Assembly: GCA_946407375.1 (NCBI GenBank)
Contig: CAMJNS010000001.1
Span: forward strand, 5,159-69,158
Source: an uncultured bacterium
GTDB taxonomy: Bacteria > Muiribacteriota > Ozemobacteria > Ozemobacterales > Ozemobacteraceae
Direction: 5' to 3'
DNA: 64,000 nucleotides
The translations under genes were made by a program, and so were the position numbers. The notes beneath the pieces were generated by a model that saw only the letters and a list, made by a program, of their open reading frames with translations, searched no databases and was not told the DNA's origin. Shown in pieces: positions 7,329 to 36,010 of this stretch (position 1 is its first letter; the number at the start of each line of letters is the position of its first letter).

Positions 7329-8030
7329 TTAATTATTGAAGGTTAACCCCATAGCAACCAAAGAATTATAAATCTGATTTACTGCGCTATCTGCAGTTCC
7401 ATCTGCCGCTCTAGCAAAAGTTATCTGAGTTCTTGCTCCATCTTCATTACCAATAATAAAATAACACCAAGCAAGCATTGCATGTGCACCAGCATTAGTT
7501 ATTCCTATAGGATGAACAGCATTAAACACAGTTGAGGTTTCTTTTAAACCAAGCGATTCCAACAAAGTTACAGCCTGTTGACAAGCTGGTTTTGTTCCTC
7601 TTTGCATTAAAGCAGCAGCCAAGCCAAGTTTTGCTTCATCATTTAAGCTAGATGCTTGAGTAAAAGCAGAATAAGCAGATTCTGCACCAGAAGACTTAAG
7701 TAATGACCAACCTAAACCATTATATGCACTAGCTTTTTGGGCATCAGATATTTTTGAATTTAATAATGCTTCATTAAATTTACTAATAGCACTACTATAA
7801 GCAGCGTATTTAAAATCTTCCCAAGCACTAGCTATTAGAGAATCTACATCTGTTTCTACTATTCCACCGCCACCACCGCTGGAACCTCCACTGTCACCAG
7901 ATCTTCCACCAGGTCCTACAATATCTGATGGAACAGAATATCTTCCTGTTCCGCTACTCGAACCACAGCCAATGGATAGCGTAAGTGCTACAGCCATAAT
8001 AGCAAAAACTATGATTATATGTTTTTTCAT
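7329..8030 (-). CDS. Lipoprotein (paralog A) with a Gly/Ser-rich linker and a conserved C-terminal helical domain. Partner of the upstream giant adhesin gene.
   Basis: Signal peptide with lipobox (..LSIGC), then a GSSSG...GGSSGGGGG linker. The C-terminal ~170 aa align with 18309..19118 (LGW..., AHAMLAWCYF, ARTQITFARAADGT). Confidence 0.7.
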   Translation of the reverse strand: MKKHIIIVFAIMAVALTLSIGCGSSSGTGRYSVPSDIVGPGGRSGDSGGSSGGGGGIVETDVDSLIASAWEDFKYAAYSSAISKFNEALLNSKISDAQKASAYNGLGWSLLKSSGAESAYSAFTQASSLNDEAKLGLAAALMQRGTKPACQQAVTLLESLGLKETSTVFNAVHPIGITNAGAHAMLAWCYFIIGNEDGARTQITFARAADGTADSAVNQIYNSLVAMGLTFNN

Positions 8031-8092
8031 TGGTCACTCTCCGAATAAAATCCTGCTCATAACAGTTTATTCGGAGAATTCCTCTGAATAAA

Positions 8093-11000
8093 CTATTTAA
8101 GAACAGCTATTTTCAAAGTATACTTAGCTTTTTTGCCCCAATTATTAGGATCTCTTACTTCAATTCTAGCAATATATGCACCATTAGCTACTTTTTTGCC
8201 TTTTCTGTTGCAAAGATCCCAACGAGCTTCGTAAACAAATGAATTCCCTTCGACTCTTGTAGCTTGCCTCATATCAATATTTCTAGCATCTGCTACAAGG
8301 TGTCCGGCAACATCATATATTTTCACACTTACTTCATCGGCATTTATCTGACTTCCTCTTACCTTAAATCTAATTTTTGAATAATTTTTTGCAGGATTTG
8401 GATAGCTAGATACATCTTCAATAACAAGAGGAACTATTGCCTGGAATCTACCTGCAACTATTGCGGCTCTATTACCAGCTAAGTCTGATATATTCAAGCT
8501 CAATTCGTGTTCACCAGAATGTAGAACAGGAGGTGTAAATTTAGCAACAGTTCCATCTTTGCTAATAATTACATCATATTCTTTGCCATCCATAACAGCT
8601 TTTACGCTGTCTCTATCTAATCCGGAAGCAAATTCTGATATATTCCAAGTAAATACAGGCTTAGTAGTCCTGATTGTCTTGGTAAGATCATTTTCTATCG
8701 AAGCTCTAGGAGCCATTTTGTCTTGCATCAAAGCAAATAGACTACCATCTTTTGTTGAGAATCTAGCAGTTCCACTAGCAAGAGTTGTCTTTAACAATTT
8801 CCAAGAATTATTAGAATATTCATAAAGACCAACAGTCTTATTTGATAGTTGTTCATTAGTCATTTTAAATCCTATATTAACAGATTTGGTCAATCTGTTA
8901 CTTGGAATGACCAGCTTGTAACCATCACTATATGGAACTAATTCTTGAACGGCTTTATCTGATTCACTGCTTATATCAATGCTAGCTCTGAGAGAAGTCT
9001 TAACTTCATTATTCATTCCATCCATTACTTCTGGCATAATAGAAGCTTTTGTTGTATCAGAAGCATTTTCAACTTTAATAAGCTTTTCTGTAAGCAACAT
9101 AATGGTTGAATTTGATTTTAATGAACCCTTTTCAAAGACAACAGTTGCAACTTTATCGGCAGAAACAATAGAAGCTCTTGAAGAAGCACTTACATAAGCT
9201 GTAGTAAAGCTGTAATTTGCAGTTCCTTCATTATTAGAAAGGTCACTTGCCACAACTTTAATTGTTGCTACACCTGCATAATTTGGATCAAGATGATAAC
9301 CACCTGTAAATATTCTGTTATTACCTGTAGCAGATAATTGAATACTATTTGCAACGGTTCCTGTTTGACTAATTATTGCTGTTGGTAAACCAGAAATATC
9401 TTCATTTGACTTAACAGCAACAACAATATCTCTTTCGTTACCAGGAGTACTAAATGCTGTAACTGTTAAAACAGGAGGTGTAATATCACGACCTTCAAAA
9501 GTAACAGAAGTATCACTCTTATTACCCGATAAGTCTTTAACGCCCTTAATCGTAAGAGTATAATTTGTTCCTTCTCCAATATCACTAGAAGAAGTTATTG
9601 TAACAGACTTGTTATCTGTTCTCAGTATTACTGAAGTTATAGGAATTTCTGAAGAACCTACAGCAAGTTTATAATTAGCAACACTAATGGCCGTAGTTGG
9701 ATCTACTTGTTCGTCAAAAACAACATTAAATTGTTTTTGTGAAGACAAACCATCATATGTAATTGCTTCAATTACAGGTCCTCTTGTGTCGGCTGTAAAT
9801 TTTGCACTGTTATTTCCAGCAGTAATAGAATCACCATCTATACTCTTAACAGTATCAGCAGGAACTGTTACTGTATATACAACATTATGTTGAGTTACTG
9901 TTAATGCTGGTGTAATAGATGCCATTACAACAGATGGATCACTTGGGCTTAATGAAGCATTGGATATTTGTAATCCTGCCGGATTCACTGGTGTTATAGT
10001 ATAAGCAGCACCAATGGTAGTTGATTCAACAGCTTGACTAAATACCATTTTTATAGAATCAAGTCCGACTTGTTCAACTCCAGTTAAAGCAAATACGGAA
10101 CGAATCAAAGTTATATCCTTTGTTAATGAACCTTCATTGCCTGCTAAGTCTGTTATTTTAATAGTATAAGTACCGTCAGGAACTGGAGAACCATTATCAT
10201 CATTACCATCCCAAATAGCATACAAATCGCTACCTGTTTTTACGGTAAAGATTTCTCTGATAATAGTAGATCCTGACATAATTTTAACAACACCAGTTCC
10301 ATCATCTAAAGGATTATCAGCTACAGTAGCATCTGTAATCATAATCTTTATGTTATGTAATCTAGCATTAAATCTATCTATTCCAGGATCTCCAACAGGA
10401 GTATTGTCTGCAGTTACTTTTTGTATGGTTATGTTAGTAATAGTTGGTGCAGTTCTATCTATTACTAATGTAGCACTTGCCTTGCTTGAAGAATTCAACG
10501 GAACCCCAAGGTTACCTGCTGTATCTACCAAGTCAACTGTCCAACTACCATTCAAAGCTTCAGAAGTAATTACTGAACCATTACCGTCAAAAGCAATAGT
10601 ATATCCTGAATTACCAAATGAATTCATAACATAAGTATTTACAATATCATGTTGATCAGGATCTGGATTTTTTCTAGACAAACGCATTTTCATTGTCTGT
10701 CCTAAATCACCGGTAATTACATTAATTCTTGCAGAAGTCTGAGCTAATGGGCTAAAGTAAGCAACATTATTAATAGTTTTTAGATTCTGGAACTGCCATT
10801 CCACAACTTTTGGAGCAGCATTATCATATATTATTTGTCCATCTCTGCTTCCAGCATTTCCAGCTTCATCAAAGAATTTTACAAGATAAGTAATATTGTA
10901 ATTAGATGTTATTAAAGTGCCATCATCACGTCTACCATCCCATTCTGCATACCATTCGGTTGCACTAGAAGCCTGATAAGCAGTAAGTCTTCTTACCAAG

Positions 11001-14000
11001 GTTGAACCATCAACAGTATAAATTCGAACTTCACCAGTATCACCATCTGGAGGAGAGTCAAAGGTAAATGTTATTGTTGCAATACCTAAACCTTCACCAA
11101 TACCATTTGGATAAGTTATTGTATCTTCATTGTAATTTGAACTGACTGAAGGGCTGAATGGAACATTGCTTTGATAATCATCAGCAGAATTAGCTGTAGT
11201 ATACTGCAAAGTTTTCAGAGTAACAGTATTAATTGTCGGACCCTTTGAACGAACATCAACATAATCTGCTAAAGTGATTGAAGACAAAGCATTACCTGCT
11301 TCATCGTAACCGCCAGTAACGTTAAAGAATGCTCTTCCTTGAGTTGTATTACCGTCAAAAGCAGCAGCATTTAAAAATTCAGCTTCTGTTGCACTGACCC
11401 ATCTACTGAAGTTATAGGTCATTACAATTGATCCAGCCGAAGTAACAAGTTTTAAGCTAGGCAAAGAAGAAGGATTTGTGCTTTGGAGCATATTTTCATT
11501 GAAAGTTACAACTACTTTCATATTGTTCTTGGCAGTAACTCCAACAACATCATTTACAAGTGGATTACCTGAAATTGTTGAAGTTGCAGTAAGAACAAGA
11601 GGAGCACAGTTATCAAATTCCATTGGATAGCTTGCTACTTGATTAAATCCTGATGGATACGAAGTTCCTTCCATTTTTTTGCTTAAATCAAAAGCATAAG
11701 AAGCATTATCGCTATAACTCATTGTTGGTCTAAATATATCTGTAAAACCTTCTACATGAACGTATACTGGTTCTCGTTGGAAAGTTCCAGATTCAGACAA
11801 ACCACTATTAGCAAATCTAATATAAGTTCTATTAATACCACCCTGGTTATGTTCTCCCCATTCAATAAAAGTACCAGTGTCGAGAAGAGTATCACCATTC
11901 TGAGTAAATAATCTTAAAGTAGGTGTTATACTTCTTGAAATAGGAACTCTTATATTACTTGAGAGAGTTGCTGTTTCAAAGCTAACTTCATAAATAAATG
12001 AACTAGCATTATATCCTTTAAACAAAGTTCTTCCGGAAAGACCTTCAGTTACTGGAGTTAAAGCTACAGAACAAATCTTAGGTTCTGAGTAAGCTCCACC
12101 GTCTGGCATTGTAGTAATTAAAGGAGCTCCATTATTGTTAGAATCAGCAAAAGGTTCACTTAAATTACCCCAAAGATCAGTGAAAGCTCCGTTTTCACAT
12201 CTAAGATAAAATTTACCTGTTCCCCAAGTTAAAATGGTATTAAGTGCCGTATCTGTCAATGGAATACGAACTGTTGTTGATGCATAATCATTTAATACAG
12301 TATAACTGTTAGCACCAGAATTCCAATTAACCATTGCAGGAATACTTCCTGAAGTTCCCAAACAAATGTTTTCACCGGAACTAACACTTTCATTTGAACA
12401 AATATATATTCTAGACAAGTCAGCAGGCATTGTTTTGCCTATAACCAAACTAGTTGCTGAATAATTATCTAAGAATAATCTTGCTCTTCTATTATTGAAG
12501 TGAATAGTCAATATAGGTGTTGAACTACTCAAATCAAGACTTACATCTGATGTAATAGAGAAAGGAGTTGTTAATGGAGTTAAGTCACCTATTATTGCAT
12601 AGCCTGGCAATATTGTATTAACTCTATTACCATTTGTATCTCTAATAAATGGAGGAGGATCAAATTCTGAATCGCTTATTTGCAAACGTATCTGATTAGC
12701 TCTGTTTCCATAAGTCAAAGCTATCCAATCTTTAGCTTCTTGAGATAATTTAATACCCAAAGAATAAGCATTACAACTTGAAGTATTATAAGTGTCACCC
12801 AAATCAAAAGTATCAGTACCTGGTTGCATTCTATAACGAGCATTCCACAATTCTGACTGAGTTGAAGTGTTATACCATATAGCTAGTTTGCTTATAGATT
12901 CTTCTGTTAATGTGCTCTTATCCATTGGCTTATCAAAGGTCAAATGTAGATAATCGCCATCAATATTAGTAGAAGCTGCATTATAACGACCACTGATAAG
13001 ATTTGGTCTTTCATAATAACTTGTAGTAGAGGTGATTTCCATTGGAGAACCTCTCAATACTGGAACTATCCAGTTATTAGCAACATCTACTCCAAGTCCA
13101 TTAGGATTATAATTAGCATCTGTAGTTTCTATAATCTGTCCTGGTTCATCATCTTTGCTAGCAATAGAGAAGTAAAGTGTTGTTTCACCCCAGTCTGCTA
13201 TTTTACCCTTTGAGGTAGTGCTTAACATGATGTAAACAGTATCAGTATTATAAGTAGTCGGAGAAATCTTGTCATAATCCTCTGGATCTGCAGAAAGAGG
13301 TGTTGAAGAAAGACTAATTGCAGTGCCCTGAGCCACATCTACATTTTTATGTAGACTCTTAACTCCAGAAACATTTGCTCTACCTATTCTTATATTGTCA
13401 AGATCAATTGTGGTAGGTTGAACTTCTTCTGAAAACTTTATGGTAAGCATTGCACCATCATAAGCCAAACTTTCAACAGTAGGTCTCTTTGTGTCTACAC
13501 CTAATGGAAAAGCAACGTCTTCAACGAAATTTTTATTACCAGCACCATCAACAACCCAGATTTTAAAGCTATAACTACCTAAATCAACTTCTGAAGTTGG
13601 AACAAAGTGATTATATCTATCTGTATAAGTTGTTCCAGCAACCGTTTCAAAAATAGTACAATTCACTCCTGTAGCAGGTCTAATCAAATATGTTGAAGTT
13701 GCATCTATTGGAGATAAATCAATATAAGCATAACCTTTACCAACAGAAGCATTAATACCTTCTGTTAAAGTAACCCTAACATGGATAGAGTCTGTAGCGA
13801 CACCATTCCATACGTTTACTCCAGACCAGCCATCTGAATTTACATCTACTCTATCTATATAGGTATCGATGTGAGAAGTGCTGATTTGCGGAGGTTTATT
13901 ATCCATTTTTATTTGAGGTGCAGGAGTTACTAAAGTTGAAGTAGCTGTATTATCTGCATCATCTGTTGCATAAACTCTTATTTTAACAATCTCTTCATTG

Positions 14001-18118: not shown

Positions 18119-18240
18119 ACTTATCTATTTCTCCTGTGGAGCCTTTATAGTTCCAAGTTTTTATTTACAAGACAAAAGCGTGCACAACAATATATAATGT
18201 GCACAGTATATTTTACTATAACATTAAATGTTTATAAAAA

Positions 18241-18300
18241 AAATACCTCGTGCATAATTTTTTATATTTTTTTATGCACGAGGTATTTTTTTTCTTTTTT
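18241..18300. terminator. Rho-independent terminator (bidirectional hairpin) downstream of lipoprotein gene 18309..19118.
   Basis: Perfect 13-bp inverted repeat atacctcgtgcat ... atgcacgaggtat, flanked by A-run and T-run. Confidence 0.65.
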
Positions 18301-18308
18301 TCTTTTTT

Positions 18309-19118
18309 TTAGAGTCCTGCTGCTATAAGAGTTGTATAAATTTGATAAACAGTTCCTGTTGTGGAAGTATCATCTGCTCGAGCTTGATAAATCTGAGTTC
18401 TAGCTAATTCTACTTGATTTCTCCAAAAATAAGCATAAGCAAGCATAGCATGAGCTTCTGGAGAGCTAACACCTATGCACGTATGTTCTATTCCTAATAC
18501 TAAAGTTGGATTAGACAAAGCTAATACGTCCGCCAGTAAATATATCGCTCTATCCAAATTAGAATCACCTGTAGCCTGAATCAAAGCCAAAGCATAACCA
18601 AGAACAGATTCTCTATAAGCTTTAGAATTTTTTTCACCCATCTGATAAGAGGCTTTAAAATCTTCTATACCTTCAAGAGTGTTGTAATATTTGACTTTTG
18701 CCCATCCTCTACCATTAAGAGCTTGTTGTCGCTGATCATCTGTAGCGGTAGGATCATTTATAACATTGCCAAAATAACTAATGCTTCCGCCATAATTACC
18801 TTCATCCATCAAAGACCAGCCTTTAACTATTAATTCAGCAGGTGTTCTTACATCTGTGCCGGTACCTGTCCCTGTTCCAGTATATGTTCCTGTCCCAGTG
18901 CCTGTGCTGGTACCAGTTCTTGTTCCTGTGCTAGTTCCAGTTCCAGTAGATGTTCCGGTTCCAGTAATTATAATCGGTCCTGTTGGGTTTTCTCCGGGTA
19001 AAGTTTGTCTACCACTACCATCACCAGAACTGCCACCACAACCAATTAACATGACAGTTGTTGCAAACAAAAATGAAAGCAACAGTTTATAAAACTCTAT
19101 CATGTTAACTTTTTTCAT
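18309..19118 (-). CDS. Lipoprotein (paralog B) with a (Gly-Thr)n repeat linker and a conserved C-terminal helical domain. Partner of the upstream giant adhesin gene.
   Basis: Lipobox (..LIGC), then GSSGDGSG and ~36 aa of GTGTSTGTGTSTGTRTGTSTGTGTGTYTGTGTGTGT. The C-terminal domain is homologous to 7329..8030 (AHAMLAYAYF, ARTQIYQARADDT). Confidence 0.7.
   Translation of the reverse strand: MKKVNMIEFYKLLLSFLFATTVMLIGCGGSSGDGSGRQTLPGENPTGPIIITGTGTSTGTGTSTGTRTGTSTGTGTGTYTGTGTGTGTDVRTPAELIVKGWSLMDEGNYGGSISYFGNVINDPTATDDQRQQALNGRGWAKVKYYNTLEGIEDFKASYQMGEKNSKAYRESVLGYALALIQATGDSNLDRAIYLLADVLALSNPTLVLGIEHTCIGVSSPEAHAMLAYAYFWRNQVELARTQIYQARADDTSTTGTVYQIYTTLIAAGL
18854..18962 (-). repeat. Imperfect hexanucleotide (GGNACN)n coding repeat that encodes the Gly-Thr dipeptide linker of the lipoprotein.
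   Basis: The + strand reads cctgtccctgttccagt...ggtaccagttcttgttcctgtgctagttccagttccagt. Its antisense frame gives the spurious PVPVPV ORF at 18856..19092. Confidence 0.6.
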
Positions 19119-22200: not shown

Positions 22201-25200
22201 GCATTTGGATATACATTAAAGCTGAATACATCGTCATAATGATATTCTTCTCCACTTTCTAATGTAGCACTAGCCGTTGTTTCCTGATAAGAGATTGTCT
22301 TAACAGAACTAACTATAGGACCACCTGACTTAATAGAGATTTCCCCGAAATCAACTTCAACTCTGTTACCAGTTAAGTCTGTTCCAAAAATATGATAAAC
22401 ATAAGTTCCCTGAGGAATCATATTCTGAACAGCTACAGCAGTTTCAAATATTGCGGTATCACTAGCAATAGCTGTTGTTTCTATTCTCACTAGTCTACAA
22501 GGAATAGAATAAGAAGTTGTTGCTATTTCAAGATATTGATATGCTTCATCAAAAAGTGATTCATTAAATTGAACACTGAATGTTGCCATACCAGCTTCGC
22601 CAGAATTCAGATAAAGTTGTTCTGTAATTGTCGCAACTAATACTTCTGGTGCTGTTTTATCAATTAAAACAGTTCTGCTTGCTCCAATAGAATCATCTGT
22701 AGCAAGAACAGCAAAATTACCAGCCATGTCTACTGCAGTAATTGTGTAAGTTCCTTCAGGAATATCAGCATTAGTAGTATCAGTTAATTTGCCATTATAA
22801 ATATAAGTCGTATCAGAAATACTCATATTATATGTTCTTGTTGCAACAATATCAGAAGTTGGACTAGACACACCAAATACAACAAGTCTTAAAGCATCGC
22901 TTGCATTTAGATTAATATTAGCAGTTAAACTACCCAATATATCTGGATTATAATAATAAACTAAATCGCTAGAAGCAGATGAAACTCCAGTCAAAGTGAG
23001 ACTAGTTACTTTTGGTAAAATACTGTCATAATTCAGAACAAAATTATTAGAATCAGTAGCTATATTTCCTACAGAATCTATTAATTTTATTGTGAAAGTT
23101 CCTGCATATTCTATTGGTGCAGCAATACTTGGAGTGAAATCGCCGAAGAAATCTTCATTAACAGTTATTTCTGTCATTCCATCAACCAAAGTATGTGTTG
23201 CAATTTGAACTCCAGTATTATCAAACAATAACAAAGTATGGTCTAATGCATAAGGACCTTTACCAGTTGCATATTCTATTGTTAATGTTGCAATATTAGG
23301 TTCTACTCTAAAGCTAAAAGCTGTATTTGTGAAACTATCATCAGTTAACAGTATTTGTTTTGTTGTAAGAGTTGAAGAGAAATCTGGACTTTCAGAAATA
23401 ACTTCTACTTCACCATAAGTAGCTGTTGCCACAATATTACCAGCAAGATCTTTTGCTCCACTAACAATAATAGATGCTGTTCCAACAGGGAAACTAATAG
23501 TATCAAATATGTTATCTGTTACAAAAGTACATCTTTGATCGTCTAACCAAGCGTCAAAAGTTAATGTTGCTACATCTCCGGTATCTGTTGCTAGCAATAG
23601 TGTAGGATTAACATTAGTATTCATAGCTTCATCAAAAGTAACCAAAAACATAGCTGTTTTTCCTATAACAGTTAATGGATTATAAGTTTCATCAGAAGCA
23701 TAAGCTCCCATAACTTGAGGAGGAATACTATCCACAATTATTGCAATAGAAGCAGTATCATTAATATTACCTGCTAAATCAGATACCGTTAAAGTATATT
23801 TTCCATCAGGTAAAGCACTACCAAAACTAATTGTATAGCTATCTGACGCAGATATGATATATGTCGTTGTAGCAGTAGAAGATGCAATCAATAGCAAATC
23901 TTCTGTTTCTGTAGTGGTAACAGTAAAAGTAGCTGGATTTGCAGAGCTATAATACTTTATACCACCAGTGTTTTCTCCAACATCTCCATCATCAAATGCA
24001 ATATCAGTAACATCAGGAACAGTTATATCTGTTTTGAAAGTCCATTTCAAGTAACCACCTGTATCTGGACTACAATTTTCTAAAACATCTACTATTTTGA
24101 AAGTATAAGTTGCATTAGCTTCTGGTATACCATCAGCAACCCTCCAAGTTGCGTAACCAGGATTTGCTTCACTAACAGTCAAAGTAGCAATATTTTCATT
24201 TGACTCATTGAAAATAAGTAACCTATGAGGAGTATTAAACGGACCACTGACATAATCGAGTTTAAAGGTTACAGAAGCAGAATTCCCTGTATTATATTTA
24301 ACAGGATTAAAGGGTCTATTTTCTAATACTTCATCACTTATATCTGGTTGTAAAGTAAGAACAGTCATTTCTCTAACGCCAGGACCTATAGGTTGAACAT
24401 CTGTAGTACAAGTTGCTGGTGTAGAATCTATCCAGTTTCCAGCTAAATCTCTAGCTTCATAAACCTGATAATTATAAACACCAACAGGTAAAGAAGTTCC
24501 TATAGGCATAGCATTAGTGAATGAGGCAGTCATCATGTCATCGCCCCATCCAACAAAATTCATTTCTATATAAGTGCTATAAGTAGTTGTTGCTAATACC
24601 AGATGAGGAGTACTGCTAGTATCCATCAATTCGGCAAACTTAACAGTAAACGTTGCCATTCCTGTAGCAGTATTTGCGATTCTATCATCTGGACCAGGTA
24701 AAATACTTTCTACGCTAGGTGGAACATTATCTACTATAAACATTAGAGGCGCTGCATTGGTATGTAAATTACCTGCTTCATCTGCCAACATCACCGTATA
24801 TAGGTTGTCACTAAAACCCCAACCGAAACTATCTGTGTATATTGAGCTACTTGGAGTTGTTGTGCTCAAAGTCATAGTTGCAACTGGAGACATAGGAATA
24901 GAATATGAAGCTACAAGCAAGTTCAAAGGCTTATTATAATTTCCATTCAATCTTGCTTTGAATGTCATATTATCTAATGTAGAACTATAATAATATATTC
25001 CTTGACTATATGTTGCAGCACCGCTAAGCGACATTGTTGCCACATCAGGAGCAGTAGCATAGTAATCGATGCTTCCCACAACATCAGTTATATTATTAGC
25101 AATATCAATTATCTTTATTGAAATAGTACTATTGGTTGTTGGAATGGAAGTAAAATCTCCAGCAGTAATTGTAGCTGTAGCATTAACTCCATCCTGCGTA

Positions 25201-28200
25201 ATAGTAGCACTACCTATCTGAACATCTGACGAATTATACAAACAAAGAGTATGTGGAAGATTTTCCGTGTCTTCTGACTGGTATTTAAAGCTTATTTTCG
25301 TATAATCAGGTGATGCATCAAAATTTAAAGGCTTGCCTGCAACTACAGTATTTATATCAATAGTATTTCTTATACTATTGAGCTGAATACTATTGGCAAC
25401 TATTTTTGGTACTTCTGATCTTATAAGCATATAAGTTGTAGAACTAACAAAAGCATTACCAGCTAAATCTTGTCCGCCAGAAAGCTCATAAGACCAGGTT
25501 CCGTTAATAGTAGTAGCTGTTATTGGCTCATCAATTGTAAATACAGCTCTGGTATCAGAATTTTCCCAACGACTAAATGTGAAACTTATAGTCGCTGCAC
25601 TTGTAGCCAACACTAAGCTAGGATTATAAGCAGTATCCATTGTTTCTGAATAATCAACATAGAAATCATCTCGCCCTGCTTCTAACGTACCTAAAAGAAC
25701 AGGTCCAACATCTGTTGCTGTAGGAGCCACATTATCTATTATAAACGCAGCAGATGCAGTGCTAAAACCTGTTACGCTAGTTTCACTCTGCTTGGTTCTA
25801 TCATATACATATGACGCTATGAGAACAGGAGATTCATCTCCAAATACATCCTTTAAACCGTATAGTCTTAATTCAGCTTCAACACCATCAACTTCTTTGG
25901 TAAAATCTTCAGAAGTTTTGAATGTAACTATGGTTCTTTCAGTATTTCTTACGGTTCTAGTGCTCCAACCTTCAAAAGATGCTGAAGCAATTCTATCTCC
26001 TGTTGAAGTTTCAAATATTGCTGCAGTTGGATTATTCGATTCAGTAGTAGAGAATGGTATAGGATTTGCACCAGCTTTAAATTTAGTAACTTCAAAATCA
26101 ATAGTAAAGTTTCCAACGTCTTCTTTTGTTGGAGGCATATCTGTTACAGAAACAGCTATTAAAGAAGGCGTTTCATCTGGAACAGTTTCTACAACATCAA
26201 CAGCTCCCGGAGATGAAGGCTTATATCTAGTATTACCCATACCCCACATATTAATGAAAGAATCTTCATTAACTTGAAGTCCCCAATTTGTTGGACTACT
26301 AATATTATAATAATCCATTATTTTAACTATATCGTTTTCTGTTAAACTAACATTTACCGTGGTGCTAGCATAGTCATTTAATGTTGTGGTAATAGAACCA
26401 CAGCTAAGTTGTATACTTTTGCTTTCATCGTCAAGATCAAATAATGTAATTTTATTTAAATGTAAGTTAGAACCTTTTTGATTAGTTATAGAGGGTAATC
26501 CCATTTCTGGTTTTAATTCATTTTCTGTTCTATAACTATCGCTAAACAACCAAACTCTGTCGCTAAATGTAAGTTTTAGATTAGCACCAGTCAGATTTAT
26601 AGTTGGAACAGGATCAGACAATATATTTAAAGCTGGAATTGGAGTCGTTTGACGATTATCTGCTATAATATAAGGTGATTCTATCGTATATAGCTTCAAA
26701 TCTTTATCTAGAATACTTTTTACCATCTTGTTGGCAGATGATTTTTGTGCAAATTTTAAAGTACTATCTGGATTCTGAGTTAACCTATTAGCAATCCAGT
26801 CTCTACCACTATCACATAATATAATTCGTAAATTCTTATTATCAGTCCACACACAAGTATCTGCTTGTTGAATTACATACCATGAATCATAAGCTACATC
26901 ATGAAACTCTGTCCTTCCATCGCTAGGCTCATTTACATAAATTACAGCATCTGAAGCGACAAAAGTTGCTTTATTCATTTCTTGAGAAAATTCAATATTA
27001 AATGAAATTTTAGTTGGCCAATTATGAGTCATGGAGAAATTAACTATGCTTGGTGCTTCTCTCCAAGTATAATCTGTTATTGTTATTGGGAAAGCAGAAT
27101 ATGAAGCAATCCAGTTACCATAATTGTCTGTAGCTGCTGCAACATCTTCATCTCTTCTTACTTCTAAATAAAGAGGAGAAGAAGCCCAGTTAGCAACTTC
27201 CTTTTGTCCGTCTAAACCTAAAGTTACAACAACTTCATAAAAGTTATCTGTCCAAGAAGCTAATGAAGTATCGGAAAGATCCAGTTTTGAAGTTGCTCCA
27301 ATCGGAATAGTCGCACTTCCTACGAGGAACCATTTACTTTCATTTATATTATAGATATCTTCTGAAAAACTTATGGTTAAATTTTTACCATCAAAAGTTA
27401 CACTTGTTACTTCGGGCGCTTTTGTATCTAGTGATAATTCATGAATTGCCCCGCAAGGATAACCTGCTTCATCATAAATACTAATAGGAATGTATACACT
27501 TCTGTAATCTGTTTGTATGAAAGAGGCTATATCTAATCCGTTACCAGTATTATTCACCAAAGAATTTGTTATTGAGGCAAGAATATAATTTGAATCTCCA
27601 CCTAAACTGCTTAAATCTAATGCTGCTGTTCCTATTATTGCTCCATCAGAAAGAGTGGCGCTTGCTACAAGCAAATCTCTTGTTAATCTATTTGTTCCTG
27701 AACCTATATTTAATATTCCTGTTTTTTCGTGATCAGGATCAATAACCAATGAATAACTGGCTATACTTGGATAAACATTTTTAGCAACAAAAGTAGTTAT
27801 GCCTGATGTTGGGGTAGCTACATTTGCTGCATCATCAACTACTGAAATAATATAAGCAAATTCATCTAGATTTAGACTTCCCCAGGTTCCACCGCCTTCT
27901 ACAGCACCAGGAGCTTTAATAACAAAAGACATTTCATGTCTATTCATGTCACTATTATATTCCATTTGCTTAGTAATAGTTGCAACACCTGGATCAATAG
28001 AGAAACTTACAGAAGCTACTGCATCTAATCCTGAAGTCATGCTAGCATAAAAAGTTATAGTATCACCTATTCTTGCAATATTTGAATTTTTAGGAGGTAA
28101 TAGGCCATCGTTTCTAGCACTTATTTCCGCTCCGCAAAGTGAAGAATTTATTATAGGAACCAAACAGTCTACTGTTTTAATTTTCTGTGATTTAACAGTT

Positions 28201-31200
28201 GTTGTGTTGCCGTGATTATCTTTTATGGTTGCTGTAAATTCATAATCTTCATATTCTTCTGCCGTTAGCGTAGTAGTTGCAACGAAAGTATAAACATAAT
28301 CTCCGCCTGATATTGTTTCACTAACACTTTGTGTCGGAGAACCTCCAATTGCAGATAAATCATATGTTACTGTTATAGATTCAGAAGCAATAAGTTCTAA
28401 TGTAATAGGATTAGTTCTATTATCTGTATAGTTTATTCTCTGGTGTTCGGTAATGCTATCGCCTGTTATTAAAAATGATTTGGCTTCAGGAGGCTTATTG
28501 TCTATTAATAATTCTCTAGTATAGCTTGTTACCGAGTTGTCACAGCCATCACTAACAGTAATTGCCCAAGATGCAACAAGATTATCTATATCTCCTGACG
28601 CTATAGTCGCATTATATGAATAGACACCTACCGAGTCTTGATTCATTATTTCTTCAGACAATTCAGGATTTAAGCTAGATAAATTTATTACAGGTGGCAT
28701 TCCATCGTTGCCGTATACGTAAACCTTTATAGTAAAGGTATCACCTATTTTTAAAACAGAACCTCCACCTGGTGTTCCAACCAATATCGAAGTAATTACT
28801 GGCGGATTCAAATCTACTCTCTTTATTACATCGCTTTCAACAGCAACTTTATTACCAGAAATATCATACATTACTAAATTGAATATATAGTCAGACTGTT
28901 CCTCTAAACCAACCGAATCTGTAGCTACTATCCGTGAATGGTAATAACCAGCACTTTTTTCCATGCTTATAAAATTAGTAGGCCCTGTAACAGAAGCAAG
29001 ATTAGTATTATCAATATAATTCATTGTTCCATCTGTTAACTTACACAAATACGTTACATCTAACGTACAAGTGGCGCTGTCGTCGTTAGTTGCTTCCCTG
29101 ATAAATGGCAATACAAAATCAATTGTCTTTTTAGTATTTATTGATGTTGGAAATTTATCTTCAGTATTTGAATGATTTGTTAAAGTAATTATTACTTCTT
29201 GAGGGTCAGGAGGATTCTGGTCTAATGTTGGGAATGGGAAAGAGGCTACCATAGGTTCGCCTGTTGCTTTGTTTATAACGGTATTACCAGCATTATCCAA
29301 AATTGTCATTGGGAAAACTATACCATTATTAATTGTTCCTGTAGCAACATCAAATGTAAAAGTATAATCTTTCCCTATTTTAGTCATGGTTTCTTGAGAA
29401 TAATTACCCAAAGAAGAAAGATCAATAACTACCGATATTCCATCATCTACCTCATTGTCTAAAGTGACTTTTAGATTTACTACATCTCCAATAATAACAA
29501 ATGGGTCACTAGAATCATTGTTTATCAGTGTTCCATTTAATCTGCTTTCTTGACTTACCCATATTGGTGGCTCATTATCAACTTTCATAGTCAAAGTTGT
29601 TCTAGAATGGTTACCATGATTATCATGAGCTTCTAATACAAAATCATAATCTCTGTCTATTGTACCTGTCGCGACCGTACAAACGCATCGCCATTGATTA
29701 CCAGAACTATTCGTAAAATCGTGAATACCAGAATTATCTAAGCTTGTAAAATCAACAAAAACTGGGTGTAGATAATCATTTGCTCCACTTACTGTAGCAA
29801 GCATAGTTAATATATCTTTGTTAATTATGCTTCCGTCAGTTCCTGTTGCTCCAGTTATGGTAAAAGCATCAATCTGAGGTGCAACGTTGTCTATCATTAA
29901 AGACGGAGTTGTCATTCTTTGTAATACTGCTCCATTTCTGTCTGTTGCAGTAATTACAAAAATAACATATTGCCCGTCTAACGAAATGTTATTCAAGCCT
30001 CCACTATATGTTGCAATAAAACGATTCAAATCTTCGTTAAACAATAACGGCATAGAAGCGTTTACCCCAATAGGAGTCAAGTCTACTACAACTGTAGTTG
30101 ACTCCGTGGCTGTAGTAGAAACAAAAGAAGAGAAATATAATTGTGAAGTGGCGGTTGCTACAGGTATTTTTACATTATTTTCTGAATAAGCCTGAACCAT
30201 TGCGTCACTGTGTAAAAATTCGCCTAAATCAACTATACCTGCAAAAGTAACTTCTCGCGTTATTTTGTTCCCAGCATCGTCTGTTGCAGTAAATTGGAAA
30301 GCTAGAGTGTTATCATAATAACAGGTTGGGTCTGTTGGTAATTGTAAGGTTCCTCTGAATGTAGCCTGAGCACCCTGAGCAGGCGTTGCATTAACCACAA
30401 GATTTGTTGGTAATTTGCTGTCATCAAATGTTGTTCCATGATTGTTTTTCAATTCACTACTAGTTACTGTAACACTATCATTGTCGTAGTTTTCTATAAC
30501 TGCGGTGAAAGTTAAAGTGTCTCCTGGCTTTGCTAAGTTTGGATTTGCATTAGAAGAAGTAATTGTTGTTTGAGCTATAACAAAATCTGGTGCACGGCTA
30601 TCTATCATTAATCTTAATGTATCTACACCTGTGTAGACCGTTGTGTTTCCCGCATCATCTGTTAGAGTTACAACACAAGTGCAAACTGTATTGTCTATAT
30701 TGTCTGGAACGATAAATGTCGTAACATAGGTTTTTTCGCCCTTTAAATTCATTGTAAAAGTACCTAAACCTATGTCTTCAAGACATACTTGTACAGATTC
30801 TATATCATTGCTTGTAACTTTTTGAGTTATAGTAGCAACTTGACCGCTTGTTAAAGCCATCCCTGATGTGTATTGTCTGCCATTAACAGTACAAGAAGCC
30901 ACCCCATTTCTTAACGGAGGCTCATTATCAACATTTATTGACACAGATGTATATTCTTCAGTTCCATCTGAATTGGTTAAAACAAATTTTCCTGTCACTG
31001 CTCCATCAATATTTCCTGGAACAACAGTTAAAGCATTATTTCCTGCAGCGTTAGTTATACCAAGATACAAATTACTACCATTTATCTGGGTAAGAGCTAA
31101 TTGATCTTCTCCTGGATTTGTGACACCATTAAAATCTACAGCACCTGCGGTATTCTGTCCATCGCTTGTGAAAATTATAGATGCCTGTATTTGACTACCT

Positions 31201-31358
31201 ATTATTGCCCATCCATTTTTACCTGGGTTTGCTATGACAGTTACTGAATTTTCTCTCTCTTCTGGTTTAACCGCAAAAAGGTTACAGCAAACAAAAATAT
31301 ATAAAATTACAAATAATAAAATGTATTTATTCTTATAGCAGGATTTGAAAAGCATCTT
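19284..31358 (-). CDS. Giant surface protein (~4024-4038 aa): signal peptide, tandem Ig/cadherin-like domains, T9SS-type C-terminal sorting domain.
   Basis: The ORF track starts at 31400 (MELIFSQ...), but M15 (MLFKSCYKNKYILLFVILYIFVCCNLFA, a signal peptide) is preceded by GGGAGAcaagATG and is the likelier start, at 31358. Boundary motifs recur (IDSRAPDF, IDNVAPQI, VDNEPPIW, LDQNPPDP, IDNKPPEA, LDTKAPEV, IDNVAPTA, IDKTAPEV, IDTKAPEI, RDVTPPEF). C-terminus YPNPARNNVTIRI...VKIYDVAGHKV...GVYIARLEA...STLKIAVLK. Confidence 0.85.
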   Translation of the reverse strand, partial: KMLFKSCYKNKYILLFVILYIFVCCNLFAVKPEERENSVTVIANPGKNGWAIIGSQIQASIIFTSDGQNTAGAVDFNGVTNPGEDQLALTQINGSNLYLGITNAAGNNALTVVPGNIDGAVTGKFVLTNSDGTEEYTSVSINVDNEPPLRNGVASCTVNGRQYTSGMALTSGQVATITQKVTSNDIESVQVCLEDIGLGTFTMNLKGEKTYVTTFIVPDNIDNTVCTCVVTLTDDAGNTTVYTGVDTLRLMIDSRAPDFVIAQTTITSSNANPNLAKPGDTLTFTAVIENYDNDSVTVTSSELKNNHGTTFDDSKLPTNLVVNATPAQGAQATFRGTLQLPTDPTCYYDNTLAFQFTATDDAGNKITREVTFAGIVDLGEFLHSDAMVQAYSENNVKIPVATATSQLYFSSFVSTTATESTTVVVDLTPIGVNASMPLLFNEDLNRFIATYSGGLNNISLDGQYVIFVITATDRNGAVLQRMTTPSLMIDNVAPQIDAFTITGATGTDGSIINKDILTMLATVSGANDYLHPVFVDFTSLDNSGIHDFTNSSGNQWRCVCTVATGTIDRDYDFVLEAHDNHGNHSRTTLTMKVDNEPPIWVSQESRLNGTLINNDSSDPFVIIGDVVNLKVTLDNEVDDGISVVIDLSSLGNYSQETMTKIGKDYTFTFDVATGTINNGIVFPMTILDNAGNTVINKATGEPMVASFPFPTLDQNPPDPQEVIITLTNHSNTEDKFPTSINTKKTIDFVLPFIREATNDDSATCTLDVTYLCKLTDGTMNYIDNTNLASVTGPTNFISMEKSAGYYHSRIVATDSVGLEEQSDYIFNLVMYDISGNKVAVESDVIKRVDLNPPVITSILVGTPGGGSVLKIGDTFTIKVYVYGNDGMPPVINLSSLNPELSEEIMNQDSVGVYSYNATIASGDIDNLVASWAITVSDGCDNSVTSYTRELLIDNKPPEAKSFLITGDSITEHQRINYTDNRTNPITLELIASESITVTYDLSAIGGSPTQSVSETISGGDYVYTFVATTTLTAEEYEDYEFTATIKDNHGNTTTVKSQKIKTVDCLVPIINSSLCGAEISARNDGLLPPKNSNIARIGDTITFYASMTSGLDAVASVSFSIDPGVATITKQMEYNSDMNRHEMSFVIKAPGAVEGGGTWGSLNLDEFAYIISVVDDAANVATPTSGITTFVAKNVYPSIASYSLVIDPDHEKTGILNIGSGTNRLTRDLLVASATLSDGAIIGTAALDLSSLGGDSNYILASITNSLVNNTGNGLDIASFIQTDYRSVYIPISIYDEAGYPCGAIHELSLDTKAPEVTSVTFDGKNLTISFSEDIYNINESKWFLVGSATIPIGATSKLDLSDTSLASWTDNFYEVVVTLGLDGQKEVANWASSPLYLEVRRDEDVAAATDNYGNWIASYSAFPITITDYTWREAPSIVNFSMTHNWPTKISFNIEFSQEMNKATFVASDAVIYVNEPSDGRTEFHDVAYDSWYVIQQADTCVWTDNKNLRIILCDSGRDWIANRLTQNPDSTLKFAQKSSANKMVKSILDKDLKLYTIESPYIIADNRQTTPIPALNILSDPVPTINLTGANLKLTFSDRVWLFSDSYRTENELKPEMGLPSITNQKGSNLHLNKITLFDLDDESKSIQLSCGSITTTLNDYASTTVNVSLTENDIVKIMDYYNISSPTNWGLQVNEDSFINMWGMGNTRYKPSSPGAVDVVETVPDETPSLIAVSVTDMPPTKEDVGNFTIDFEVTKFKAGANPIPFSTTESNNPTAAIFETSTGDRIASASFEGWSTRTVRNTERTIVTFKTSEDFTKEVDGVEAELRLYGLKDVFGDESPVLIASYVYDRTKQSETSVTGFSTASAAFIIDNVAPTATDVGPVLLGTLEAGRDDFYVDYSETMDTAYNPSLVLATSAATISFTFSRWENSDTRAVFTIDEPITATTINGTWSYELSGGQDLAGNAFVSSTTYMLIRSEVPKIVANSIQLNSIRNTIDINTVVAGKPLNFDASPDYTKISFKYQSEDTENLPHTLCLYNSSDVQIGSATITQDGVNATATITAGDFTSIPTTNSTISIKIIDIANNITDVVGSIDYYATAPDVATMSLSGAATYSQGIYYYSSTLDNMTFKARLNGNYNKPLNLLVASYSIPMSPVATMTLSTTTPSSSIYTDSFGWGFSDNLYTVMLADEAGNLHTNAAPLMFIVDNVPPSVESILPGPDDRIANTATGMATFTVKFAELMDTSSTPHLVLATTTYSTYIEMNFVGWGDDMMTASFTNAMPIGTSLPVGVYNYQVYEARDLAGNWIDSTPATCTTDVQPIGPGVREMTVLTLQPDISDEVLENRPFNPVKYNTGNSASVTFKLDYVSGPFNTPHRLLIFNESNENIATLTVSEANPGYATWRVADGIPEANATYTFKIVDVLENCSPDTGGYLKWTFKTDITVPDVTDIAFDDGDVGENTGGIKYYSSANPATFTVTTTETEDLLLIASSTATTTYIISASDSYTISFGSALPDGKYTLTVSDLAGNINDTASIAIIVDSIPPQVMGAYASDETYNPLTVIGKTAMFLVTFDEAMNTNVNPTLLLATDTGDVATLTFDAWLDDQRCTFVTDNIFDTISFPVGTASIIVSGAKDLAGNIVATATYGEVEVISESPDFSSTLTTKQILLTDDSFTNTAFSFRVEPNIATLTIEYATGKGPYALDHTLLLFDNTGVQIATHTLVDGMTEITVNEDFFGDFTPSIAAPIEYAGTFTIKLIDSVGNIATDSNNFVLNYDSILPKVTSLTLTGVSSASSDLVYYYNPDILGSLTANINLNASDALRLVVFGVSSPTSDIVATRTYNMSISDTTYIYNGKLTDTTNADIPEGTYTITAVDMAGNFAVLATDDSIGASRTVLIDKTAPEVLVATITEQLYLNSGEAGMATFSVQFNESLFDEAYQYLEIATTSYSIPCRLVRIETTAIASDTAIFETAVAVQNMIPQGTYVYHIFGTDLTGNRVEVDFGEISIKSGGPIVSSVKTISYQETTASATLESGEEYHYDDVFSFNVYPNAATMSIVLSDEPDGDPSTIYVTFLKKEIINQITQEVFVASYAVAVDANYMATFTWNAVTEPIVATSASFIIRLADVNGDLSYYAHNWSVDSEAPTFSTLAFNGGVDFPASGVVYLNPYRHTNFEVIFRDVVENTPKLRVRSSISTDTYALNSTSNNSWKTAFRAKYSRDTGNPDDLMPDGVYDIGLVDQAGNVAASDTEDLYQMIIDTKAPEIGTITLKINGITVGQNCAPSETRPLIISLETEEPATATGAYYVDVYNSGGVRINRINIVDNAGNLEASWDAKDSSGKTVTDGVYTFKVSDICGNTSVNATSTNAITAPFKAMNPAVQTGSNTVKLWFNHSIDPGSLGATPFSIKPSITISNIQIEDERALTFIANGMTHGASYTLTVGNDLRNIYGDSISPTASSAVFFADVKGPSIVNTSFENVNTQSDIVIIFDQILDKESGESPSSYVIKDASGNTIPISYVIMQPDNQSVMICASGTFIENAIYTIQAPGVKDELGNNACETSLTGFSFRGRDVTPPEFTIAAFSNAANENDIIVVALSNEELLREPKLTIIHGTASPITMTMQKNSSNNLAFMAAASLKSSNGQSGTLKVEGEDLNGNKGGSSNSFAIATVAPNTSARLTYDDKQFSLIFNEDSLKSKATVKILKRSIIKDETATGTIQTALQNEYTKMRGLRASVASADEEAANSELTPITDAYEASILSSKVNKGVVAALKVPETASQTPGLGLFYQKNGSWKFISANITSDKEIKAKITSNQVFAIMQDSVGPTIKLDESIDLSKAFETARPEFVGNIKDYGSGLDTNSLEAKIDSKLQNLSVDANGNFKFKSLSELINGKHDLTITAKDRTGNTASTGSMRFALVLPFEFKQIIQYPNPARNNVTIRIRTNSTEVNCHIRVKIYDVAGHKVADFDENDVNDKGDGNYELRWDLCNKKGKKVANGVYIARLEAINPETGKKVKSTLKIAVLK

Positions 31359-31517
31359 GTCTCCCAGAATGAAGCCAATTTGGGAGAATATTAGCTCCAT
31401 TCAAATTTTATCTAATATATTAGTTCCTGCCTAACAGATTAATTTATTTTTGAAAAAAGTACAAGCCCTTTTAGAAAAAAACACTGGGCAAAGTATAAAA
31501 AAATAAAAATATACGAA

Positions 31518-36001: not shown

Positions 36002-36010
36002 GAACTTTAA

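Follow-up and report, generated by a model that had tools for sequence, protein, structure and literature searches.

Two exceptionally large genes of an uncultured gut bacterium, each followed by a gene for a small lipoprotein, raise the question of whether the lipoprotein serves its giant neighbor as a dedicated partner and, if so, on which export route the pair might act. The 64-kb window (the whole stretch of DNA analyzed) belongs to a member of the candidate phylum Riflebacteria, not of Bacteroidota. Both giants end in a T9SS-like C-terminal sorting domain (CTD). We examined the locus together with its relatives.

Architecture of the four-gene locus

The four genes are arranged on the minus strand in the order giantB–lipoB–giantA–lipoA. 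Their coordinates and strand, as first given by a sequence-only reading of the window, agree exactly with the ORF list, and all peptide motifs quoted there were found in the translations. The features are as follows.

19284..31400, minus strand: giantB, 4038 aa (ORF, translation, Pfam and NCBIfam matches)
19287..19616, minus strand: giantB CTD, last 110 aa, YPNPA...WDL.N..GK.VANGVY...KIAVLK (TIGR04183 at 31 bits, alignment)
19247..19283, minus strand: hairpin plus T-run resembling an intrinsic terminator, between giantB stop and lipoB start (dG -26.3 kcal/mol, z -8.5)
18309..19118, minus strand: lipoB, 269 aa (translation, alignment, 45 homologues)
18236..18293, minus strand: terminator-like hairpin plus T-run 3′ of lipoB (dG -28.2 kcal/mol, z -12)
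8093..18118, minus strand: giantA, 3341 aa (ORF, translation, Pfam, domain HMM)
8096..10045, minus strand: giantA C-terminal cassette, last 650 aa, with β-sandwich stalk, Big_13 and CTD (AF2, tblastn)
8096..8425, minus strand: giantA CTD, last 110 aa (Por_Secre_tail at 30.6 bits, TIGR04183 at 23.7)
8031..8092, minus strand: giantA–lipoA spacer, 62 nt, hairpin without T-run (fold dG -22.7 kcal/mol)
7329..8030, minus strand: lipoA, 233 aa
7255..7304, minus strand: terminator-like hairpin plus T-run 3′ of lipoA (dG -18.1 kcal/mol, z -7.8)

Given that the hairpin in the giantA–lipoA spacer lacks a T-run, giantA and lipoA are probably co-transcribed. Downstream, a convergent SIS/CBS gene faces the terminator-like hairpin 3′ of lipoA. 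Each unit had been proposed to possess its own terminator. Hairpins with T-runs are indeed present at the two places concerned, but the one at 19251–19283 sits inside unit B, parting giantB from lipoB instead of closing the unit; the hairpin at 19247..19283 is absent from the list of a consensus terminator scanner. The surroundings of the locus in the window comprise genes of LPS and outer-membrane biogenesis, namely LptF/G, LpxA/C/D, BamA and Skp.

Inspection of the translations by eye assigned a Sec signal peptide to the N-terminus of both giantA (...RFFYSGFSILLLILLLMITSSGYA/EV) and giantB (...KYILLFVILYIFVCCNLFA/VK). Aligned over their C-terminal ~1220 residues, the two giants are 30% identical (E 2e-115); on the N-terminal side, an alignment of ~1100 residues has 24% identity (E 2e-34). 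The paralogy suspected for their last ~600 aa is far beyond chance. A single iterated HMM detected 12 Ig-like domains of ~110 aa in giantA and 9 in giantB. The ~12 tandem domains of giantA fall within its first ~1500 aa and are followed by further β-sandwich domains and Big_13; giantB is a chain of diverged Ig-like β-sandwich domains with Big_5, Big_13 and an internal FlgD_ig (aa 3315–3367). Pfam matches in the giants are Big_13, Big_5, Big_3_4 and FlgD_ig, and the domain signature D-x-[A/S]-G-N occurs 17 times in giantA and 22 times in giantB. AF2 modelled the C-terminal 650 aa of giantA as all-β, with about six sandwich domains (pLDDT 73). The HMM, signature, Pfam and AF2 results verify in part the Ig-like content ascribed to the giants earlier, the total of ~25–35 repeats per giant being plausible from protein length only. 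No DNA-level tandem repeats were found in the giants, indicating that the domains are old and fixed.

As anticipated, the neighbor of each giant is a lipoprotein with a G/S/T linker. Its signal peptide ends in a lipobox (LSIGC with Cys22 in lipoA; MLIGC with Cys27 in lipoB), which recurs in almost all lipoprotein ORFs having an intact N-terminus. The two C-domains are paralogous, as had also been noticed, with 33% identity over 175 aa (E 3e-22). A conserved motif reads GRQTLPGENP in lipoB and, as a variant, GRYSVPSDIV in lipoA. The linker is (G-T)n-rich and ~65 aa long in lipoB, and G/S-rich in lipoA; the C-domain of lipoB is TPR-like, and aa ~60–228 of lipoA make up a TPR-like domain of nine helices. 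The G/S/T linker is disordered and the TPR domain is predicted with confidence, and the conserved motif GRxxxPxExP hardly varies within classes A and B. LipoB has 45 homologues, the named ones of which are nearly all labelled Riflebacteria. The lipoproteins matched no curated family; NCBIfam, pilus TPR models included, gave no hit at E ≤ 0.01.

Pairing of giants and lipoproteins in relatives

We surveyed co-occurrence starting from the lipoprotein alone, taking those lipoprotein genes that had 900 nt or more of DNA upstream. Sixty of the 63 homologous lipoprotein genes lie directly 3′ of an ORF ending in the giants' CTD, and the spacers from giant stop to lipoprotein ORF are mostly shorter than 170 nt. 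The other three, all lipoB genes of the rumen clade, have a cassette of seven genes upstream; at L065, the sole one of these loci showing giantB, the cassette separates giantB from lipoB, and tight adjacency is therefore not obligatory. In the reverse direction, which is biased by the ascertainment of the loci via the lipoprotein, 59 of 60 terminal CTDs have a lipoprotein after them. Moreover, an unbiased profile search yielded three much more remote relatives of the lipoprotein, and the ORF preceding each of them ends in a CTD. This neighborhood survey, which the sequence-only reading had proposed, supports its view of the lipoprotein as a dedicated partner of a CTD giant. Given that the TPR-like lipoprotein belongs to no curated family and that the co-occurrence holds, the generic family without such a signal, named there as the counter-case, was not seen.

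The two-gene unit is conserved across the candidate phylum Riflebacteria and reaches related uncultured lineages. Distant Riflebacteria show the order giantB–lipoB–giantA–lipoA again, with genes of similar length: giantA orthologues measure ~3245–3330 aa and giantB orthologues 4009–4020 aa. For instance, L003 and L005 encode a giant of ~3250–3330 aa with a lipoprotein of ~230 aa, and L007 and L008 show a succession of 4009–4020, 250 and 3303–3321 aa. The pairs are paralogous, in line with the tandem duplication suggested before, but the duplication is ancient and conserved phylum-wide, not a recent event. The pairing is kept at 26–35% identity, with partners ranging in size from at least 1264 to 4038 aa; single genomes keep it in three or more paralogous classes, and it persists with different flanking genes and module relocation. 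Where the modules are separated, the lipoprotein remains beside its own giant. The class-C module, consisting of a 1670–1800-aa CTD protein and a 211–222-aa lipoprotein, lies amid unrelated housekeeping genes, and the pair thus behaves as a self-contained unit. A tblastn search of the C-terminal 600 aa against the loci revealed that the C-terminal cassette also stays with the lipoprotein in relatives that are much shorter; the distant relatives L072 and L074 retain just this cassette and the lipoprotein. Across 56 pairs, the pairwise identity of the TPR domain correlates with that of the CTD (r 0.78) and of the stalk (r 0.79), values reached by 0 of 2000 permutations and to which shared phylogeny contributes.

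The CTD and its relation to known systems

T9SS type-A CTDs are β-sandwich domains of ~75–100 aa at the C-terminus. Taken by itself, the CTD of giantA reaches 30.6 bits on Pfam PF18962 Por_Secre_tail (cut-off 27); on TIGR04183 (cut-off 23), the isolated CTDs of giantA and giantB reach 23.7 and 31 bits, respectively. In the full-length giants, the CTD scores lie just under cut-off, at 23.7 and 26.4. The isolated domains hence pass the curated type-A cut-offs, in keeping with the T9SS-type CTD first recognized on both giants, and each giant combines, as T9SS type-A cargo does, such a C-terminal CTD with an N-terminal Sec signal peptide. Within the family, Por_Secre_tail matches 40 of 42 CTDs at E ≤ 0.01 (best E 2.1e-09). 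A type-B CTD (CHU_C/TIGR04131) was rejected as the best model, since CHU_C matches fewer CTDs (25 of 42) and more weakly (best E 2.3e-06). The PorU model is matched at its C-terminal end by the giantB CTD (59 bits), and the best PDB matches of the CTD profile are PorU (E 8.7e-15) and PorZ (E 0.004), the CTDs of which are retained. T9SS type-A cargo has its CTD cleaved by PorU and is attached to anionic LPS. The giants terminate in an invariant peptide, ...K[I/L]AVL[K/R].

In most relatives, a PorV/PorQ-family barrel gene, one of an ORF family with 27 members across the loci surveyed, is located directly 3′ of lipoA. Two of these barrels score 129.5 bits (L003:10780-11736) and 125.2 bits (L005:10772-11842) on NF033709 (cut-off 90); they do not reach the cut-offs of the equivalog models PorV, PorQ and PorV2. 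The barrel's sole PDB sequence match is PorV (6h3i_F, E 0.027). The CTD match to PorU/PorZ and the linked barrel suggest anchoring via a retained, barrel-bound CTD. The attachment complex of the T9SS is named in PMC12365241. PorU–PorV and PorZ–PorQ of the T9SS are such pairs of a protein and its partner, and this already contradicts the earlier statement that no such pairing is known for T9SS cargo. The giants resemble these pairs in both their CTD and the linked barrel, but differ in that the cargo is a 3300–4000-aa Ig-domain fibre, not a sortase or LPS-delivery protein, and in having an additional, putatively cargo-specific lipoprotein. Unlike PorV/PorQ proper, the relatives' barrel passes the broad subfamily model only, and no PorV/PorQ-like gene was found in the 64-kb window; the T9SS core components SprA/Sov (translocon), PorK/L/M/N or GldK/L/M/N, and PorU (sortase) were likewise absent from its scanned ORFs.

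Type-B CTD cargo with cognate PorP/SprF-like proteins is also known in the T9SS, for example SprB–SprF of Flavobacterium johnsoniae and PG1035–PorP–PorE of Porphyromonas gingivalis, again at variance with that statement (PMC9143113, PMC12618676). Both the PorP/SprF systems and the present locus link a very large CTD surface protein genetically to a dedicated outer-membrane partner, with several cargo/partner pairs per genome; in the former, the partner is needed for secretion or anchoring of the cargo. However, the giants' CTD is best described as type A (Por_Secre_tail, TIGR04183), with CHU_C weaker, the partner is a TPR lipoprotein of ~230–270 aa without a β-barrel, and the host belongs to Riflebacteria. 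A PorP/SprF barrel was ruled out as the adjacent partner, which is an all-α TPR lipoprotein, the barrel linked in relatives being of the PorV/PorQ family. As small outer-membrane lipoproteins built of TPR repeats, lipoA and lipoB also resemble PilF/PilW (PDB 2fi7, 2vq2), the pilotins of type IV pilus secretin assembly, but they show no sequence-family match to them, are linked to CTD giants (60/63) instead of secretin or pilus genes, and carry a long disordered tether with the GRxxxPxExP motif. SprE/PorW (PDB 8gl8 chain I), a TPR lipoprotein of the T9SS extended translocon, shares the generic TPR structure without a sequence-level match; its solved chain has 624 residues versus 233–269 aa for lipoA/lipoB, and it is a single general component, whereas lipoA and lipoB would be cargo-specific. 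What is new here is a TPR lipoprotein partnering a type-A-like CTD, the theme of cargo and cognate partner being already known. According to published accounts, the T9SS is restricted to Bacteroidota or the FCB group (PMC7463736, PMC12398890), and our literature search retrieved no paper tying it to Riflebacteria.

A putative model and its alternatives

On balance, we lean toward the lipoprotein being a cargo-specific TPR partner, either an anchor or pilotin-like, of a giant on a T9SS-type sorting route. Starting from the directly observed paralogy, CTD family membership, predicted TPR fold, lipobox and near-universal adjacency, we infer secretion of the giants by the T9SS, retention of their CTDs, a direct lipoprotein–giant interaction and the membrane face that the lipoprotein occupies. 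In this putative model, Sec would export the giant to the periplasm, where the CTD, most like the retained CTDs of PorU/PorZ, might direct it to the T9SS-type route. The PorV/PorQ-family barrel, encoded 3′ of lipoA in most relatives, would then hold the giant on the cell surface via its CTD. The small outer-membrane lipoprotein would present its TPR domain on the disordered G/S/T tether bearing GRxxxPxExP. As a cargo-specific receptor, the cognate TPR domain may bind the C-terminal cassette or the invariant terminal peptide, and thereby act at the outer membrane as a pilot or tether for its own giant. Such a role would be analogous to those of the TPR pilotins PilF/PilW and the cognate PorP/SprF shuttles.

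Alternatively, the giants may constitute a phylum-conserved surface layer or sheath, with the lipoproteins as surface membrane anchors and the CTD as a structural anchor rather than a T9SS signal. Their length and domain order are conserved in the phylum (~3250–3340 and 4009–4038 aa), unlike those of typical fast-evolving adhesins, and the absence of DNA-level repeats and the setting among LptF/G, LpxA/C/D, BamA and Skp genes point the same way; the strong terminator 3′ of giantB could permit the giant to be expressed far more strongly than the lipoprotein. Foldseek matched the C-terminal model best to the S-layer proteins SbsC, SbsB and Sap, but the TM-scores of 0.13–0.18 only reflect strings of Ig-like domains. 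Moreover, the Pfam scan found no S-layer-specific domain in the giants, and the CTD passes T9SS type-A thresholds with a PorV/PorQ-family gene linked in relatives. We regard this reading as rather unlikely; it overlaps the cargo-specific partner model and does not exclude it.

The adjacency itself could be inherited operon structure around a general envelope TPR protein, engaged in outer-membrane biogenesis or linked to peptidoglycan. The TPR fold is generic, many envelope biogenesis genes lie nearby, and nearly all named loci fall in one candidate phylum, so that phylogenetic inertia could partly explain the conservation. Yet the pairing outlasts the sequence divergence, the range of partner sizes, the paralogous classes, the changed flanks and the relocation described above, and each lipoprotein keeps its own giant when modules part, which renders this explanation improbable. 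Because the locus runs on into pilB–pilT–pilin genes in many Riflebacteria, the lipoproteins might instead serve type IV pili, as pilotins or assembly factors of the PilF/PilW/Tgl kind, and lie near the giants by chance. We consider this highly improbable: a CTD protein precedes each paralogue, with lipoB placed between the two giants, the class-C lipoproteins are far from any pilus gene, and no NCBIfam model, those for pilus TPR proteins included, was matched. In the window, lipoA is ~48 kb from the pilus genes, which possess their own canonical TPR protein (55975–56727) directly upstream of pilB.

Extending the cargo-specific partner model, it is conceivable, though doubtful in its full form, that Riflebacteria use a T9SS-type route in which a per-fibre TPR lipoprotein recognizes the retained PorU/PorZ-like CTD or stalk together with a PorV/PorQ-like barrel, and that the giants form a phylum-wide, length-conserved coat. 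If true, T9SS-type sorting would operate in a phylum outside the group where the T9SS has been described, and the TPR lipoproteins would represent a new, cargo-specific class of pilotins or anchors. The maintenance of the pairing almost wherever the lipoprotein occurs suggests that the lipoprotein is a new accessory part of an export system that has to date been studied solely in another group of bacteria.

Two paralogous giant–lipoprotein gene pairs

Four minus-strand ORFs occupy 7329–31400, organized as two units that each comprise a giant, putatively surface-located Ig-repeat protein and a lipoprotein with a predicted TPR domain:

7329–8030, minus strand: lipoA, lipoprotein of unit A, ORF of 233 aa
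8093–18118, minus strand: giantA, giant protein of unit A, ORF of 3341 aa
18309–19118, minus strand: lipoB, lipoprotein of unit B, ORF of 269 aa
19284–31400, minus strand: giantB, giant protein of unit B, ORF of 4038 aa

The coordinates in the sequence-only reading are exact, and every peptide motif quoted there was found in the translations. The paralogy it described was also borne out, with lipoA and lipoB sharing 33% identity over 175 aa (E 3e-22), and giantA and giantB 30% over the last ~1220 aa (E 2e-115). The giants further share 24% identity over ~1100 N-terminal residues, so that their paralogy spans most of their length. An iterated HMM recovered one ~110-aa domain type in 12 copies in giantA and 9 in giantB; the two proteins contain 17 and 22 instances, respectively, of a D-x-[A/S]-G-N signature. 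Besides a T-run, no DNA-level tandem repeats were found inside 7300–31500; the Ig-like domains are thus old and diverged, rather than recently amplified. Given this absence, the 30%–33% identities and the phylum-wide arrangement of the units, a recent tandem duplication is ruled out.

Folding of the sequences around these genes revealed three strong hairpins followed by T-runs:

19247–19283, minus strand: hairpin and T-run, dG -26.3, between giantB and lipoB
18236–18293, minus strand: hairpin and T-run, dG -28.2
7255–7304, minus strand: hairpin and T-run, dG -18.1

Each unit had been credited with its own terminator, on the basis of the first two hairpins. A consensus terminator scan did not list them; both are real upon reading and folding of the spacers, but the one at 19247–19283 lies inside unit B rather than at its end. 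With a terminator at this position, expression of giantB could far exceed that of lipoB. The 62-nt spacer between giantA and lipoA holds a hairpin without a T-run, and the corresponding spacer in other genomes is often only a few nucleotides long.

The neighboring genes mostly concern outer-membrane and LPS biogenesis, including LptF/G, LpxA, an LpxC-FabZ fusion, LpxD, Skp/OmpH, and BamA (32478–45438); a UDP-glucose dehydrogenase, a nucleotidyltransferase, and a DegT aminotransferase are encoded in the same interval. Other features of the window are as follows:

6266–7231: KdsD-like SIS+CBS gene
31518–32330, minus strand: LmeA-like protein (PF11209, phospholipid-binding), 270 aa, directly upstream of giantB
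45628–47727, plus strand: DnaB-type replicative helicase, 699 aa
55975–63818, plus strand: type IV pilus/T2SS-like cluster

The LmeA-like protein has a signal-anchor-like N-terminus. In the helicase, the DnaB N-domain match starts at about residue 181, indicating an N-terminal extension of ~180 aa. The pilus cluster encodes a canonical 250-aa TPR protein, a PilB-like ATPase, PilC/T2SSF, several prepilin-type N-methyl proteins, and a PilM-like protein. ORFs of 544, 511, 579, 589, and 846 aa (974–6250, 47780–49549, and 52019–54559) gave no significant Pfam or NCBIfam match; the 579-aa ORF showed a faint prepilin-like N-terminal match to 'Verru_Chthon cassette protein A' (E 0.036). Neither an Rfam scan nor a tRNA scan gave any match in the window.

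C-terminal sorting domains and lipoprotein motifs

Pfam searches with the full-length giants returned Big_13, Big_5, Big_3_4, and an internal FlgD_ig, with Por_Secre_tail slightly below threshold. The last 110 aa of giantA alone score 30.6 against a cut-off of 27 on PF18962, and the isolated C-terminal T9SS sorting domains (CTDs) of giantA and giantB score 23.7 and 31 on TIGR04183 (cut-off 23). Por_Secre_tail matches 40 of 42 CTDs from related loci, and the alignment displays the classic YPNP...IYD..G..V...WD...G..V.NGVY...K.AVL[K/R] pattern. The best solved relative of the CTD profile is the CTD of PorU (E 8.7e-15); that of PorZ was also matched (E 0.004). PorU and PorZ are known as the two T9SS proteins that retain their CTD and remain attached to PorV and PorQ. 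As modelled by AF2, the C-terminal 650 aa of giantA consist of beta structure throughout and form about six sandwich domains (pLDDT 73); the underlying alignment was shallow (5 sequences), since a word-prefiltered homology search with this segment returned only 3 proteins. Foldseek matched the model to the S-layer proteins SbsC, SbsB, and Sap, to PorU and to SiiE, all with TM-scores <0.2, a level of similarity that reflects no more than a chain of Ig-like domains.

Both lipoproteins carry a lipobox, and its Cys is invariant across the family alignments (23 and 92 members). Located 7–16 residues past the lipidated Cys, a G-R-[Q/Y]-x-x-P-x-E-x-P motif is near-invariant in lipoproteins of classes A and B, the module classes named after the two units:

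7965–7938, minus strand: GRxxxPxExP-type motif of lipoA, from the lipoprotein alignments
19019–18990, minus strand: GRxxxPxExP-type motif of lipoB, from the lipoprotein alignments

Lying within a predicted disordered segment, the motif might act as a sorting or docking peptide; class-C lipoproteins and distant relatives, which are shorter, lack it. A G/S/T-rich linker follows, leading into a domain of ~165 aa in which GLGW, [A/E]..GLA.AL, and AHAMLA..YF motifs are conserved. Against PDB sequences, the family profile found only generic TPR proteins with E above 1e-4, and no curated family was found for the TPR lipoprotein.

Adjacency of lipoprotein and CTD genes across Riflebacteria

We scanned one genome per species with patterns from the lipoprotein alignment, which yielded 63 loci, and ran HMMs of the CTD and the lipoprotein on six-frame translations of all 76 loci (1.18 Mb). 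A CTD was counted if it terminated an ORF whose end lay <900 nt ahead of the TPR domain. After removal of redundancy, 63 lipoprotein genes had 900 nt or more of DNA upstream, and 60 of them are preceded by such a terminal CTD. In the other direction, a lipoprotein gene follows 59 of the 60 terminal CTDs with room downstream, a figure biased by the ascertainment of the loci, whereas the 60/63 figure is free of that bias. The CTD HMM detected no CTD in any other ORF of the 76 loci. All three exceptions are rumen-clade lipoB orthologues with a seven-gene cassette upstream:

L065:4281–9632: seven-gene cassette, upstream of lipoB, rumen clade
L064:3666–8993: seven-gene cassette, upstream of lipoB, rumen clade
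L067:79–4191: seven-gene cassette, upstream of lipoB, rumen clade

In L065, the cassette sits between giantB and lipoB; in L067, a 1681-aa ORF without family match precedes a frameshifted lipoB. The cassette encodes two OmpH/Skp-like coiled-coil proteins of ~320–330 aa, one pseudopilin-like protein and four proteins without assignment; scans returned nothing T9SS-specific, the matches being to OmpH for two proteins and, weakly, to pseudopilins for one.

A profile search of the full library gave 28 cluster representatives at E <= 1e-30, together with a tail of 200–230-aa lipoproteins without the N-terminal motif. Three of the latter were examined, and each lies directly after an ORF ending in the same stalk-plus-CTD cassette (3/3). 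Furthermore, over 56 pairs, the identity between TPR domains correlates with that between CTDs (r 0.78) and that between the preceding stalks (r 0.79), values reached in 0 of 2000 permutations; this is consistent with co-divergence of the TPR domain with CTD and stalk, to which shared phylogeny contributes.

Where a source is named, almost all homologues of lipoA and lipoB come from Candidatus Riflebacteria/Ozemobacteraceae MAGs, the closest being rumen, goat, and reindeer MAGs; the few labelled otherwise are probably mis-binned. The Bacteroidota origin implied by the term T9SS is thus ruled out. The usual gene order is giantB (~4000 aa), lipoB, giantA (~3250–3330 aa), and lipoA, then a PorV/PorQ-family barrel, a STAS protein, shikimate dehydrogenase, PilB, PilT, and a pilin. 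Directly 3' of lipoA in most Riflebacteria, the barrel belongs to an ORF family with 27 members across the surveyed loci. Two of them (L003:10780–11736 and L005:10772–11842) score 129.5 and 125.2 bits on NF033709 against a cut-off of 90; the cut-offs of the PorV, PorQ, and PorV2 equivalog models were not reached, and the only PDB sequence match is PorV. The barrel is missing from the post-lipoA position in the window and in rumen-clade loci L009–L014, and the 64-kb window contains no homologue of either the barrel or the seven-gene cassette.

Tandem arrays of three or more giants are present in some genomes (L044/L048), showing that the copy number of the module varies. In this case (contig CAZADH010000049.1, one Ozemobacteraceae-like MAG), a lipoprotein follows each of the first two giants. 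A third module class (class C), a 1670–1800-aa CTD protein plus a 211–222-aa lipoprotein, occurs in some genomes among unrelated housekeeping genes; neither a barrel nor a T9SS gene was found next to it. Together with the tandem arrays, these unrelated contexts indicate that the two-gene pair is a mobile, self-contained unit.

A putative TPR lipoprotein partner for giant CTD proteins

The 60/63 adjacency and the three distant relatives support the earlier proposal of a dedicated partner, in which a giant with a type-A T9SS CTD and its TPR lipoprotein would form a functional couple. Operon inheritance alone would hardly explain a pairing that persists down to 26%–35% identity, in several paralogous classes and different genomic contexts. 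That the lipoproteins serve as pilus pilotins is unlikely, as every lipoprotein paralogue comes after a CTD protein and the pilus cluster of the window has its own TPR protein beside pilB. A further reading, in which the giants form an S-layer or sheath anchored by the lipoprotein, is compatible with the conserved giant length and with the hairpins as expression signals; it overlaps with the functional couple.

For this couple, we propose the following as the most likely model. Initially, Sec would carry the giant into the periplasm, where the CTD would send it into a T9SS-type sorting pathway. Surface retention may then occur via the PorU/PorZ-like CTD, gripped by a PorV/PorQ-family barrel. 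The lipoprotein would act as a cargo-specific, membrane-tethered TPR receptor that recognizes the C-terminal cassette (stalk, Big_13, and CTD) or the invariant C-terminal peptide, and pilots or anchors the giant. The GRxxxPxExP motif could provide a further site of interaction, perhaps with the barrel or with a sorting factor.

That no such pairing was known for T9SS cargo does not hold in general, because proteins with type-B (CHU_C) CTDs and PorP/SprF-like barrels are an established case of cargo with a cognate outer-membrane partner (PMC9143113, PMC12618676); it does hold for a TPR-lipoprotein partner outside any curated family. In contrast to those pairs, the giants here have a type-A-like CTD and a small TPR lipoprotein as partner, and their hosts are Riflebacteria, uncultured organisms in which the pair is known from sequence computation. 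According to reviews, T9SS is restricted to Bacteroidota or the FCB group (PMC7463736, PMC12398890), and our literature searches found no published link between Riflebacteria and T9SS, including T9SS components in this phylum.

In summary, the pairing provides a compact, testable hypothesis involving one TPR domain and one C-terminal cassette. Knowledge of T9SS has so far comprised general components, plus cognate PorP/SprF barrels for type-B cargo; if true, a TPR lipoprotein dedicated to one cargo with a type-A-like CTD would be a new kind of accessory factor, bearing on the recognition and surface retention of very large cargo. The co-existence of T9SS-type CTDs and a PorV/PorQ-family barrel in Riflebacteria is relevant to the evolutionary range of T9SS. 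Given that their length and order are conserved across the phylum, the giants likely represent major structures of the cell envelope that had so far escaped notice in these uncultured bacteria of the gut and the subsurface.
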